Assembly: GCA_963668695.2 (NCBI GenBank)
Contig: CAXXLQ010000004.1
Span: 288,001 to 352,000, forward strand
Origin: Vicinamibacteria bacterium
Lineage (GTDB): Bacteria; Acidobacteriota; Vicinamibacteria; Marinacidobacterales; Marinacidobacteraceae
Reading direction: 5' to 3'
Length of the DNA stretch: 64,000 nucleotides
Of this stretch, positions 2,955 to 24,038 are shown one piece after another. Made by a program: the position numbers and the translations under genes. The first letter of the stretch is position 1. Every line of letters starts with the position of its first letter. A model generated the notes under the pieces. The model was not told the DNA's origin, made no database searches, and saw only the letters and a list, made by a program, of their open reading frames with translations.

Positions 2955-3779
2955 ATGCGACCCACCTGGCAGGGCAACCTCAAGTTGGCCCTCGTGCTCG
3001 TACCGGTGCGAGCCTACCCGGCGGCCCGCACGAGAACCGTCGCGATGAACCAGTTGCACAAGGAGTGCAAGGCTCGGGTGCGGTTGCAGAAGCGCTGCAC
3101 CTCCTGTGATCAGGATCTCGAACGGGACGAGATCGTTCGCGGTTATGAGTTCGCGAAGGACCAGTACGTGCTGATCCAGGAAGAGGACCTTTCCGCTCTG
3201 CAGCTCCCCTCACACAGAACCCTGGACATCGTCCAGTTCGTCGAGGAATCGGAGATCAATCCGCTCTACTACCACGGCTCCTACTACCTGGCGCCGGCGG
3301 GTGAGGTCGCGGCCGGGCCCTTCCACACCATCCTCAAAGCGATGCAGACGTCGAAGCGGGTAGCCATCGCCCAGGTCGTGCTCAGCGGCAAGGAAAAGGT
3401 GGTGGCGATTCGGCCCTCGGAAGGCGTGTTCGTGATGTCCTTCCTGCACTATGAGGACGAGGTGCGGCAGGTGCCTGATATCGACGACCTGCCGGCGGCG
3501 AGGGAACCAAACGGCGCGGAGACCGCGATGGCCCGGCAGCTGCTGGACTCCTATGCGCGGCCGTTTGACCTGAGCGCGTTCGAGGACGGCTATCGAAAGC
3601 GCTTCCTGGAGATCGTGGAGGCCAAGAGTCGCGGTCAGGAACTGGTCACCACTCCAAGCGTCGAGCCGCGTCGGGTTGTCAACCTCATGGATGCCTTGAA
3701 ATCGAGCCTCGCGAGGATCGAGGCCGAGGGATTGGGCGAAGGTGATCCGGCGCTCGGCGAGGAGCGGCGGGCAAGCTGA
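2955..3779 (+). CDS. ku: NHEJ DNA end-binding protein Ku
   Basis: MRPTWQGNLKLALVLVPV, EIVRGYE, TLDIVQFV, YYLAP and VVNLMDALKSSL motifs. Confidence 0.95.
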   Translation: MRPTWQGNLKLALVLVPVRAYPAARTRTVAMNQLHKECKARVRLQKRCTSCDQDLERDEIVRGYEFAKDQYVLIQEEDLSALQLPSHRTLDIVQFVEESEINPLYYHGSYYLAPAGEVAAGPFHTILKAMQTSKRVAIAQVVLSGKEKVVAIRPSEGVFVMSFLHYEDEVRQVPDIDDLPAAREPNGAETAMARQLLDSYARPFDLSAFEDGYRKRFLEIVEAKSRGQELVTTPSVEPRRVVNLMDALKSSLARIEAEGLGEGDPALGEERRAS

Positions 3780-16137: not shown

Positions 16138-16602
16138 CAGCCGGTGGTGGGACCCGGGTCAGCGCCGAGCCCGGCCAGTCCTCCCGGTGGGGGCGAGGCC
16201 CAGTTCTCCCGGTGGGGGTCCGGCTGACAAGGCGCGTGAGGGAGGAGCCCCCACCGGGAGAACTGGCCCGGGTGTACTCCGACCGAAACGCAACGATGAG
16301 CGGCGCGCAGCGACGCGGTTCAGCCGGGATGGATCGCCGGCCGAGCCCCCACCGGGAGAACTGGGCCGCGTGGGTTTCACTACCGGTTGTTTCGCCGGGA
16401 TGGATCGCCGGGCGAGCCCCCACCGGGAGAACTGGGCCGCGCGAGTTTCATTACAGGCTGTTTCGCCGGGATGGATCGCCGGGCGAGCCCCCACCGGGAG
16501 AACTGGGCCGCGCGAGTTTCATTACAGGCTGTTTCGCCGGGATGGATCGCCGGGCGAGCCCCCACCGGGAGAACTGGGCCGCGTGGGTTCCACCACCGGC
16601 TG
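16138..16602. mobile_element. Family A MITE with ~71-bp internal tandem amplification, seven 19-bp motifs in total
   Basis: Begins after CTAG (MATE stop). The unit GCCGGGATGGATCGCCGG..GAGCCCCCACCGGGAGAACTGGGCCGCG repeats four times. Confidence 0.88.
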
Positions 16603-21277: not shown

Positions 21278-21445
21278 GATTCCTCGGGGGCGAGACTCTA
21301 TCCGGTGGCAGGCGGCGTCAGGGAGGGCGACGCGCCGACCAGGGACCGCCGGCCAGGGACGGCGGCGCATCGGCCAGGGACCGCCGGCCAGTTCTCCCGG
21401 TGGGGGAGTCCAGACCGGCATCGCGGCCCGCCGGGCCGCGAAACT

Positions 21446-22035
21446 CAGGTCGCAGTAGCAGGACTGGCGGGACGCCAACATGTCGCACTAGCCGGTTCCG
21501 CCGGATATACATGTCGCACTAGCGGGATCGGCGGGACGCCAACATGTCGCACTAGCCGGATCTGCCGGGCGAACATGTCGCACTAGCGGGATCGGCGGAA
21601 CGCGAACATGTCGCACTAGCCGGATCTGCCGGGCGAACATGTCGCACTAGCGGGATCGGCGGGACGCCAACATGTCGCACTAGCCGGTTCCGCCGGATGT
21701 ACATGTCGCACTAGCGGGATCGGCGGGACGCCAACATGTCGCACTAGCCGGTTCCGCCGGATGTACATGTCGCACTAGCGGGATCGGCGGGACGCCAACA
21801 TGTCGCACTAGCCGGTTCCGCCGGGCGAACATGTCGGCCTAGCAGGACCGGCAGGACGCCAACATGTCGCACTAGCCGGATCTGCCGCGCGAACATGTCG
21901 CAATAGCAGGGTCGGCGGAACGCGAACATGTCGCACTAGCCGGATCTGCCGCGCGAACATGTCGCACTACCGGGATCAGCGGGACGCCAACATGTCGCAG
22001 TAGCCGGATCTGCCGGGCGAACATGTCGCTCTAGC
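21446..22035. repeat. Array of 19 ACATGTCGCACTAGC cores with alternating 16/18-bp linkers (64-bp dimer period)
   Basis: Read directly from the sequence. Linkers alternate between CGGATCTGCCGGGCGA-type and GGGATCGGCGGGACGCCA-type. Confidence 0.95.
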
Positions 22036-22087
22036 GATTCGACAAACCCTGATTCGAAATCTCGGGGGGCTCCGGTAGGCTGTCGCC

Positions 22088-22663
22088 GTGGCCGACGACG
22101 GGAGACAGCGGGCAGAGCTGCGGGGCGCGATCCGGGAAGAGGGATTCCGTCTCGGGTTCTCCGCGGTCGGATTCGCCCCACCTCGGATGCCCGAAGCCGG
22201 CCGGCAGTTCGAAAAGTGGCTGGACGATGGGAACCACGGGACCATGCACTGGATGGCCACGGATCCCGGCCGGCGGAGCGACGCCACGAGGACACGGGTT
22301 CGCGACGGGAACGATTCGGCCGCATTGCCAGAGCGGACCGTCGTGGCCTGCGGACTCAACTACTACCAGGGGGGTCCGGCCTCCGCGCCCTCCGGCGGCG
22401 GGGTGGTTTCCCAATACGCTCAAGGCGAGGACTACCACCGGGTGCTGGATTCGAAGCTCCGCGCCCTTGCGGCGTTCGCCCAAGCCCGCGCCATCAAAGC
22501 CGGCCTGCTGCCCGAGCGCTCGCCGGGCGCGCGCCGGCGCATCCCGACCCTCGTGGATCACGGACCGCTGCTTGAGAAGGCGTTCGCGGAACGGGCTGGC
22601 CTGGGATGGATCGGCAAGCACTCGAACGTGATCGCCACCCGGGGCAGCTCGTGGTTCTTCCTC
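22088..22663 (+). pseudogene. queG: Truncated epoxyqueuosine reductase (N-terminal half)
   Basis: WLDDGNHGTMHWM, SQYAQGEDYHRVL, VDHGPLLEKAFAERAGLGWIGKHS..GSSWFFL. Homology then stops and the 4Fe-4S CxxCxxC half is absent. Confidence 0.85.
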
Positions 22664-22860
22664 CGGCGGACGGGTGCGCCCCTACGGGAAGCCGCCCGGT
22701 CGGACCAAGCCCATCACCGCTGCGCGTTTCGCGGCCCTGCGGGCCGCGATGCCGACCGGAGGTCGGCGGTCCCCTCACTCCCCGCGCTTGCCGCCGTTCA
22801 GCACTCCGCCTTTCACCAGCCTTCGGCTGGCAGTGCCGGTCTTCAGGCCCCCTATAGGAT

Positions 22861-23060
22861 CACGGGCGTTGTGTAGGAGGCGGTTTCGCCTCCTACTTCA
22901 TCAACTTCGGTTGGCCGATCCGCCGGGAGTACCAAGAGGCCCCGGTGCCGCAAGCACCTGTGGTGGACCAGTACCCCGACGGATGGCCGTGATGGGACAC
23001 CCTGTGGAGAGTTGTGCCGATCGAGCACCAATATAGGGCTTGACTGCCATCGCGGCAAGG
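22861..23060 (+). ncRNA. Candidate IS110 bridge RNA (non-coding left end)
   Basis: 5' hairpin at 22873-22896. Segments match the donor junction (GGAGAGT 23006-23012, TATAGG 23032-23037) across an inner hairpin. Target-like segments at 22920-22947. Confidence 0.5.
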
Positions 23061-23072
23061 CGGACCGCTCGA

Positions 23073-23769
23073 CACCGGCGACGGCGCGGAAGGTGCGGTG
23101 CTCCACCTGGGAGAAGCTGCTGCGGCACTACGGGGTGACCCGGATCAGCGCGGACCGGGTGGTTGCGTTGTTTCGTGAGGAGGCGCTGACGGTGGCGCCC
23201 GGGGCCACCGCCGCGGCGGTGGAGACGATTCGGACGGCGTTGGCCCTGCTGGAGGTTGTGAACGCGGAGATCGCGCGTGCGGAGAAGCAGATGACGCAGT
23301 TCCTGGATGCGCTGTCGGAGACGGAAGCGGTGGGAGGCGGCGCGGGCGCGACGGCTCCGGATCCGGTCACCATCCTGCGGTCTCGGAAGGGGTTGGGAGA
23401 CAAGGCGCTGGCGCGGCTGTTCGCCTGGGGATTCGAGGCGGTGTGCGCCGGGGACCACGGCCGGTTGCGAGCGGCCTCCGGGGCGGCCCCCCCGTCCGGG
23501 TGCAGTCCGGAGAGCGCGACACGGCCCGGATGCGGCGTGCGGTGCCCTACTCGCTGCAGCAGGCCGCCTACCTCCTGGCACGCGGGGTGTTGCGCTGGGA
23601 CGAGGACGTGAAGGCATACAGCCGGAAGCTGAAGGACGCGGGGAAGACGACGGCCCGGCGGCATCGCGCCATCGCCGACCAGCAGTTCCGGGTGTTATGC
23701 GCGATGGCGCGACACCGCACCTTCTTCGACCCGAACTTCGCCGCCAGGAGCCCAAAATCCGCCGCCTGA
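23073..23769 (+). pseudogene. IS110 transposase/recombinase remnant (C-terminal half, frameshifted)
   Basis: TPATARKVR...ILRSRKGLG...SGAAP / PVRVQSGE...ARRHRAIAD...TFFDP. Frameshift at the C7 run 23487-23493. N-terminal DEDD RuvC domain missing. Confidence 0.82.
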
Positions 23770-23774
23770 CTTAA

Positions 23775-23953
23775 CAGCCTGTGGCGAAACCCACGCGGCG
23801 TTCAACCGGCGATCCATCCCGGCTGAACCACTCCGCTTCGCTGCGTTCTGCGTTGCGTTTCGGTCGAAATACACCCGGTATTCCTCCCTCACGCGCCTTG
23901 TCAGCCGGGCGCCTCACCGGCCTCGGCGCTCACGCGGGTTCCACCACAGGCTG
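23775..23953. mobile_element. Family A MITE (179 bp, no 19-bp motif) inserted inside the IS110 right end
   Basis: Perfect TTAA duplication at 23771-23774 and 23954-23957. Confidence 0.92.
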
Positions 23954-24038
23954 TTAACCCTCCCTTCCTCCTTGCATTCTCCAGGAGAGTCCACCGGGAG
24001 AACTGGCCGGCGGTCCCTGCCGGACGGATCCTCGGCGC

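Follow-up and report, generated by a model that had tools for sequence, protein, structure and literature searches.

Results

The current study concerns a 64,000-nt stretch of DNA from a Vicinamibacteria bacterium, hereafter the window (G000:C4:288001-352000), taken from an assembly of 4.1 Mb and 67% GC that comprises four contigs and is 91.7% complete. At window positions 22853-23992 (+) lies a defective element of 1140 bp, here termed IS-B, which belongs to the IS110 family of insertion sequences (IS) and is seated inside the 19-mer CCCCCACCGGGAGAACTGG. At the left junction, CCCCC (22848-22852) gives way to TATAGGATC starting at 22853, while at the right junction GGAGAGTCC, the last base of which is 23992, adjoins ACCGGGAGAACTGGCCGGCGGTCCC (23993-24017). 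Deletion of 22853-23992 rebuilds the 19-mer, just as an earlier note on this DNA had claimed, and the insertion splits CCCCC|ACCGGGAGAACTGG at a CC core, CC being the sole overlap of the right end with the left flank. The left target half (22833-22852, +) consists of one arm of a repeat resembling repetitive extragenic palindromic (REP) elements, GTGCCGGTCTTCAGG, plus CCCCC, in which AGGCCC is the left target and the CC at 22851-22852 is the core; the right target half (23993-24017, +) consists of ACCGGGAGAACTGG plus the other REP-like arm, CCGGCGGTCCC. The window contains two occurrences of the 25-mer ACCGGGAGAACTGGCCGGCGGTCCC (23993-24017, +, and 21377-21401, -), for a chance expectation of none, and the second of them belongs to the uninterrupted paralogous target that the earlier note had also noticed, in which the 19-mer is found with the same downstream flank (21377-21406, -). 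The ends of the element (TATAGGATC... and ...GGAGAGTCC) are not inverted repeats, and the same applies to 14 of 14 relatives with both ends readable. Junctions and relatives alike bear out the note's assignment to the IS110 family, with its 2-nt core and its lack of terminal inverted repeats. The left junction is also crossed without a difference by short contigs from two public sequencing runs, X1 and X4 (22744-22874), one of which is possibly the sample behind the window's own assembly.

The left end of IS-B, with a non-coding region resembling a bridge RNA gene (22853-23061, +), is followed by the C-terminal half of a recombinase gene, which lies in two frames with a stop at 23767-23769 (23069-23769, +). 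Downstream of it are a nested 189-bp miniature inverted-repeat transposable element (MITE) with the ends TTAACAGCCTGTGG...CCACAGGCTGTTAA, belonging to a subfamily that lacks the 19-mer (23770-23958, +), and the right end (23959-23992, +), composed of the left donor GGAGAGT (23984-23990) and the core CC (23991-23992). Compared to an intact 1988-bp copy from G004, IS-B positions 1-217 and 218-918 align, whereas positions 219-824 of that copy are missing. This 606-bp deletion took the DEDD domain together with the start codon and the last part of the left end. The same alignment identifies IS-B positions 919-1105 as the nested MITE and the final 35 nt as the right end, and the open reading frames (ORFs) of the window copy exhibit 82% DNA identity to intact relatives. 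A genome search yielded no PF01548 (DEDD_Tnp_IS110) match at the window copy, while ORF 23443-23769 matched Transposase_20 (PF02371) with an E of 0.039 and 14.8 bits, which is under the 21.3-bit cut-off. An intact relative (L026) matches DEDD_Tnp_IS110 at 4e-28 and Transposase_20 at 1.4e-8 (35.4 bits). Since its DEDD domain is deleted, the window copy is predicted to be a dead remnant of an IS110-family member rather than a working one. The reading frame of the recombinase half additionally shifts at a C-run near 23487, where a contig from public run X8 carries a 2-nt indel relative to the window; the frameshift may be strain-variable or a homopolymer error of the assembly.

The nested MITE is short and non-coding with terminal inverted repeats, and it has more than 40 near-full matches in G000. 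A second IS-B remnant is located at C4:792954-793879, with a different 5' truncation, the same MITE and right end, and then ACCGGGAGAACCGG. It is flanked on both sides by a ~75-bp direct repeat, GGCGTGGGAGCCGTCCCCGGGGTGGG... (L003:1215-1290 and 2520-2600; C4 ~792.7 and 794.0 kb of G000). Within G000, the left-end string was found only in the window copy and its haplotig. The latter is contig C1 (144 kb), which is 99.5% identical to C4:304-421 kb and contains the same insertion with identical flanks, and its element is therefore not an independent copy.

When the 165-aa recombinase piece was used as a query, copies with 64-81% identity were found in three sister species from the class Vicinamibacteria, namely G004 (3 copies), G009 (5), and G014 (7), all of which contain intact relatives. 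No copy of the IS-B clade was detected in 21 other genomes of the family at E <= 1e-10, and the weaker recombinase matches in G004, G007, G008, and G010 are IS-A-like (see below) or more distant. We then surveyed the flanks of 16 elements in 4 species, both ends being readable in 14 and the right end only in 2. In 14 of 14, the left flank reads (C)CCCC|TATA(G/C)GATC and the right GGA(G/A)AGTCC|ACCGGGAGAA, then (CTGG), while both elements with only a right end likewise continue into ACCGGGAGAAC, such that the right half of the motif is present in 16 of 16. The flanks diverge past ~10-25 nt, which indicates that the insertions are independent. The 19-mer is consequently the target of the element, as had been proposed.

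The other IS110 loci that were read in the family have no split motif of this kind. The sole intact IS110-family gene of G000 is a 38%-identical paralogue, IS-A (C4:482109-483885; L022:1209-2985), which has its own bridge-RNA-like left end and is seated in the REP-like repeat ACCGGAGG-TC-CGGCGTTCC. Its relatives number 6 in G004 and 8 in G008. A third IS110 clade is encoded by G018 as a 541-aa open frame in 3 copies (L145, L148, and L149).

The left ends of the clade align over ~215 nt, with conserved stems and variable loop segments, and their loops were interpreted by the published IS621 bridge-RNA model. In that model, the left target guide (LTG) and left donor guide (LDG) carry the top-strand sense of the sequence to the left of the core, while the right target guide (RTG) and right donor guide (RDG) are complementary to the core plus its right side, as far as the consulted part of the source describes it (PMC11208160). 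In a two-loop structure drawn by hand, with 30 pairs, 94.6% of the cells are paired, compared to 32-48% with the partners slid, and RNAalifold recovers the first loop unaided. The target loop of the window copy comprises an LTG of AGGCCCC (22937-22943), a hairpin (22944-22958), and an RTG of GGTGG (22962-22966), while its donor loop comprises an LDG of GGAGAGT (23006-23012) and an RDG of TATAGG (23032-23037). Across the clade, the LTG (AGGCCCC or GAGCCCC) matches the left flank over 6-7 nt, the RTG (CGGTGG) matches CCACCG, the LDG ((T)GGAGAGT or CGTGGAAAGT) matches the right end over 5-10 nt, and the RDG ((G)TATAGG) matches CC+TATA(C) over 6-7 nt. Moreover, the LTG covaries with the flank: both read AGGCCCC in G000 and G004, and both read GAGCCCC in G009 and G014. 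The other clades follow the same logic. IS-A has an LTG of ACCGGAGG and an RTG of ACGCCGG for the site ACCGGAGG-TC-CGGCGT, and in the G018 clade, which belongs to another genus and has a different repeat target, the left-end loop segment ATGGAGCGC matches the left flank TATGGAGCGCC|. The earlier note's view of the element as RNA-guided in the bridge-RNA sense thus agrees with the predicted fold and with the matches of its guides to flanks and ends.

The guides would specify ~12 of the 19 nt of the motif, (A/G)(G/A)G(G/C)CCC-CC-ACCG, and this stretch is nearly confined to the 19-mer. On C4, 75 of 80 sites of the 12-mer AGGCCCCCACCG and 627 of 641 sites of the 12-mer GAGCCCCCACCG fall within a 19-mer at <=2 mismatches. 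The near-exclusivity of the 12-mer would therefore direct the element to land between CCCCC and ACCGG at the CC core, and the guides together with this exclusivity leave nothing more to explain about its location inside the motif. One could argue instead that the motif halves are part of the element, its true ends lying further out, and that there is no separate target, given that identical halves stand beside every copy. However, there are more than 1000 uninterrupted 19-mers, the sequence past the halves differs among copies, and the target-loop guides match the halves as a target whereas the donor-loop guides match TATAGG and GGAGAGT. This interpretation is scarcely credible.

It is very probable, judging from these sequence matches, that IS-B is a bridge-RNA-type element which arrived in the ordinary way, guided by RNA to a host repeat that was already there, as IS621 is to REP elements. 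A DEDD recombinase would have integrated the ancestors of IS-B under the guidance of a left-end-encoded RNA, the target loop of which would pick ~12 nt found almost only inside the host 19-mer. Afterwards, the copy in the window would have lost its DEDD domain and gained the nested MITE, and it is also frameshifted in the assembly. Several observations weigh against this interpretation. In all copies, the LTG match misses the second C of the core by a single base, whereas the IS621 model, in the part of the report consulted, pairs both core bases (PMC11208160). Covariation of the stems is thin (4 of 30 pairs), because most stems are invariant, and no Rfam family matches the left end, the lone match being one by chance (E 0.26). 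In addition, neither a circle junction nor an empty allele was present among the public-run contigs aligned to the locus, which are very fragmented there. An empty or excision allele had been considered for joints running from 22747-22754 to 23990-23992, but their letters are those of the paralogous copy near 21388, and hence no empty allele is demonstrated. A contig from an RNA library covers 22571-23014 at a depth of 5, which is not distinguishable from DNA carry-over.

The target itself is extraordinarily abundant, in agreement with the earlier note. The window contains 32 matches at <=3 mismatches, 24 of them exact, against an expectation of 0.05, and 0 of 100 shuffles reached 32. Genome-wide there are 1123 exact copies, 1073 of which are on the main contig C4 (1548 on C4 at <=2 mismatches), split 539 vs 534 between the strands at a density of ~1 per 3.6 kb. 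These copy counts are slightly inflated due to C1, to contig C3 (31 kb), a haplotig with 97.6-99.7% identity to another 33 kb of C4, and to the ends of C4, which duplicate one another over ~130 kb (C4:9-148 kb repeats C4:3775-3913 kb) and add a few percent. The 19-mer is present in 20 of the 24 family relatives searched, while the IMG/VR viral contigs contain 0 exact matches. Most copies are associated with a MITE family that has ~630 high-scoring segment pairs over its central part on C4: 892 of the 1073 exact C4 copies adjoin MITE-homologous DNA, at 5-6 fixed positions and in both orientations, and every one of these positions is also seen empty in other MITE copies. In G000, REP-like hairpins of several kinds contain most of the remaining copies. 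MITE and motif share a distribution within the family, with the exceptions of G020 (at least 22 MITE matches vs 1 motif) and G010 (160 MITE candidates vs 13 motifs), and in G018 and G019 the same 19-mer occupies other MITE positions and other REP-like hairpins.

Identities other than a bare repeated block were also considered for the 19-mer. DNA folds of the motif with its flanks range from -3 to -4.2 kcal/mol with z of 0.12-0.40, which is no better than shuffles, and therefore the hairpin expected of a REP was not found. Likewise, a Y1 transposase (PF01797) of the RAYT type (REP-associated tyrosine transposase) has no match in G000, in a search that was positive in 6 of 14 control genomes. 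With neither a hairpin nor a RAYT gene in G000, the identification of the 19-mer as a REP or a REP doublet forming a hairpin (REPIN) mobilized by a RAYT was rejected. A multi-copy autonomous element bounded by the motif was dismissed as well: a recurrent 1.5-kb spacing turned out to reflect two MITEs on either side of a host membrane-protein gene, and duplications in the assembly account for the other long repeats. An apparent strand polarity of the motif along the chromosome was a listing artefact, as there is none in G000.

Comparisons of filled and empty sites reveal that the motif was inserted as a block. With the 19-mer written as m, site A reads ATA when empty and G-m-C when filled (+18), site B AC and G-m (+18), site D GC and A-m (+18), and site E GC and C-m (+18), while both site C and the REP-like sites read A and G-m (+19). 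No target duplication was apparent at any of them, and 1-3 nt are replaced. The block keeps constant boundaries (CCCCC...CTGG) at ~20 contexts across G000, G018, and G019, in either orientation, and 146 pairs of it lie in tandem at a period of 18 nt. Longer arrays exist as well: at window 16346-16577 and many other C4 loci, tandem arrays have a 71-bp period in which one 19-mer is joined to 52 nt of permuted MITE sequence, with 101 adjacent pairs on C4, which suggests that unequal recombination between motif copies made them.

A single insertion was verified in a conserved protein-coding gene. An AcrB-family transporter gene at C4:393184-396339 (L106:1685-4840) is full length, matching ACR_tran positions 3-1020 of 1021, and at C4:394434 it contains the 19-mer, read in frame as PHRENW, such that the gene stays open. 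Among 28 family genomes, the motif is present in this gene in 2, G000 and G001, and the corresponding orthologue match is 420 nt in these two and 384-402 nt in the other 26. At the insertion point, G008 reads GAGCCCG-CG-CGGGATG, its CG being the centre of the palindrome CCCGCGCGGG, whereas G000 and G001 read GAGCCCG-G[19-mer]-CGGGATG, for a net gain of 18 nt. By this alignment, the case is a true motif gain in non-repeat DNA. The general scan for motifs in long open frames was too noisy at 67% GC, and the AcrB-type case is the one that was verified. The earlier note's inference that the motif is no fixed constituent of a single host repeat has consequently held up well, since the motif is present or absent at many MITE and REP-like positions and once in a unique coding gene.

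The central proposal of that note was that the element makes its own target, each 19-mer being either an IS110 excision footprint or a landing pad laid down by the recombinase. Several observations are compatible with this scenario: the element is always found inside the motif, the motif is truly inserted into unrelated repeats, and the minimal donor size of 22 bp stated in the consulted part of the IS621 report (PMC11208160) differs little from the net gain of 18-19 nt. The phyletic comparison proposed in advance, namely whether motif abundance tracks the clade, points to a very different conclusion. At <=1 mismatch, and with low counts from fragmented assemblies left out, G000 has 1526 copies with clade remnants only and G004 has 740 copies with 3 clade copies, while G001 (710 copies), G008 (665), and G018 (255, with another IS110 clade present) are rich in the motif and lack the clade. 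The genomes richest in intact clade copies, G009 (5) and G014 (7), hold just 114 and 78 motifs, respectively. Among the genomes with fewer motifs, none of which has the clade, G019 contains 58 in a one-contig genome with no PF01548 match, followed by G010 with 13 and G020 with 1. Furthermore, motif presence varies among the 97-99.5% identical haplotigs of G000, a genome with no intact copy of the IS-B clade.

The mechanics of the proposal fare no better. The motif is unlike the donor ends TATAGG...GGAGAGT, with only CC in common, and the guides read just 12 of its 19 nt. As bridge recombination and excision are described as scarless in the part of the IS621 report consulted (PMC11208160), no excision footprint would be expected. 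The insertion sites show no duplicated core and have lost 1-3 nt. A “nano-IS110” version of the proposal, in which the block duplicates its core, was tried and rejected: it fits contexts in which the motif is followed by CC and fails at sites B, D, and E as well as in the AcrB-type gene. The phyletic test has largely refuted self-seeding, which we now consider highly improbable, and we conclude from these comparisons that the element would target the motif and not seed it.

Discussion

If IS-B does not seed the 19-mer, the spread of the motif requires another explanation. The numbers of the 19-mer would come mainly from riding in the ~630-copy MITE family together with gene conversion, while the block would also enter new sites independently of the IS. 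Natural strain comparisons are provided by the haplotigs of G000, between which orthologous MITEs differ in two cases at site A, and also at site D. G000 and G001 share 95-97% identity across syntenic blocks, and the collinear alignments within 400 kb of G001 contain 9 indels that carry the motif, some in each direction. One orthologous MITE has four filled sites (five units) in G000 and is empty at all of them in G001, which looks like the conversion of a whole copy. As for the origin of new sites, 12 empty sites share a mean of 4.9 nt with the internal part of the motif vs 3.85 for random 14-mers (resampling P ~0.004). Host repair or recombination may therefore copy the block from existing copies at sites sharing 4-6 nt, with gene conversion among MITEs to follow. 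We tentatively favor this inferred scenario of rare new sites by templated repair at microhomology and regard its chances as only slightly short of even. A selected host function may be superimposed upon this spread. The window also encodes a Ku gene (2988-3521; PF02735, 5.2e-44), and the organism consequently has an end-joining route of repair at its disposal.

There are reasons to be cautious about templated repair. The microhomology sites were chosen post hoc and typed by hand, and the control was unmatched for repeat composition. Sharp constant boundaries and a regular 18-nt gain are also unlike loose microhomology copying, and the exact conservation of the 19-mer over at least four genera hints at either a function or a dedicated process. 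The latter possibility would make the 19-mer a very small mobile unit, with a net size of 18 nt, that is moved by dedicated machinery while the IS110 element merely homes in on it. Such a unit would readily account for the constant boundaries at ~20 contexts in both orientations, the regular +18 nt and the tandem pairs of the same period, the clean insertion at the centre of the palindrome CCCGCGCGGG in a unique conserved AcrB-family gene, the exact conservation across genera, and the presence/absence differences between 97-99.5% identical haplotigs. Yet no candidate machinery was encountered in G000, which has no match to reverse transcriptase (PF00078, RVT_1) or Y1 transposase and no multi-copy IS >1 kb, and the motif itself has neither a hairpin nor inverted ends (z 0.1-0.4). 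The absence of target duplication and the variable replacement of 1-3 nt resemble repair rather than transposition, and the polymorphism is mostly in MITE copies, where gene conversion suffices. We therefore regard a mobile 19-mer as unlikely. A related scenario, in which a dedicated activity would insert the ~18-nt block into hairpin-prone or palindromic DNA and the IS110 bridge RNAs would be tuned to it as a safe landing pad, likewise seems rather doubtful.

It is also conceivable that the 19-mer is a selected host signal, such as a protein-binding site or a DNA-uptake-type sequence. It is conserved across the family while its contexts differ, and its copies are balanced between the strands of C4 (539 vs 534) at ~1 per 3.6 kb. 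DNA uptake sequences are short motifs that occur at ~1 per kb, equally on either strand, and are conserved inside a bacterial family. Conversely, the motif originates through insertion as a block rather than through point mutations, close relatives cope with as few as 13 (G010) or 1 (G020) copies, and there is no replichore polarity. We consider a host signal distinctly improbable as the reason for the motif's abundance; templated repair followed by MITE conversion is still our preferred explanation for the spread of the motif.

IS-B itself can be placed, as a new and defective member, in an already known group, the bridge-RNA IS110 elements. In E. coli, REP elements are the target of IS621 with its bridge RNA (Durrant et al. 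2024, PMC11208160), and within the scope of the part of that report consulted, the resemblance is extensive: both IS621 and the IS-B clade combine a DEDD recombinase with an RNA (predicted for the clade) from a non-coding end that has two loops with LTG/RTG and LDG/RDG, a 2-nt core, scarless insertion, and an abundant intergenic host repeat as the natural target. The differences lie in the core (CC in the IS-B clade, CT in IS621), in the target (a hairpin-less 19-mer vs a palindromic REP), and in the LTG match, which is one base short of the second core base in the IS-B clade. The recombinase of the clade also represents a divergent branch (Transposase_20 at 35 bits in intact copies). A second precedent, again limited to the part of the sources consulted, is provided by ISPpu9 and ISPpu10 in the REP sequences of Pseudomonas putida (PMC12288879; bioRxiv 10.64898/2026.03.19.712850), which similarly have several copies per genome, all in identical copies of one conserved intergenic repeat. 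IS-B is distinct from these in being found in another phylum with another target, and in that its window copy has suffered a deletion and hosts a nested MITE.

IS-B adds a divergent natural bridge-RNA clade whose target is directly readable. Three paralogous clades within one bacterial family, with guides matching different host repeats, constitute useful covariation data, albeit unsurprising. The more interesting residue is the target, an asymmetric and non-folding 19-mer that is identical across genera and separately inserted as a block.

Parallels to this target exist elsewhere. The dRS3 repeats of Neisseria are 20-bp sequences with inverted ends around a variable centre, and they are integration sites for the IS110-like (Piv-type) enzyme of Nf prophages. 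Like the 19-mer, they are ~20 bp long, number in the hundreds, and are landing sites of an IS110-type recombinase, whereas the 19-mer is asymmetric and often located within MITEs. Rickettsia palindromic elements insert in frame into genes, and the GC clusters of yeast mitochondria are mobile; these are palindromic and 30-150 bp in length. The 19-mer is comparable to them in being found between genes as well as in frame in a conserved protein gene, but its block of 18-21 nt is much smaller and non-folding. Neither 16-mer of the motif was present in the literature searched, and the supplementary target tables of the bridge-RNA papers, which were outside that search, may list the clade. If a dedicated process does move it, the 19-mer would represent a novel class of tiny mobile DNA, whereas if host repair copies it, it would be a clean natural case of short repeats seeded by templated repair.

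The surroundings of the IS-B locus offer some additional observations. At window 22088-22657 there is a fragment of QueG (epoxyqueuosine reductase) comprising the DUF1730 part only (1.7e-12), and its frame continues into the REP-like hairpin cluster at 22660-22850. With the DUF1730 part alone and a frame running into the hairpins, the gene appears truncated. Between an aminotransferase gene and the QueG fragment, window 21449-22036 is occupied by a tandem array with 9.2 copies of a 64-bp unit, which is made of two alternating 32-nt halves, each starting with ACATGTCGCACTAGC.

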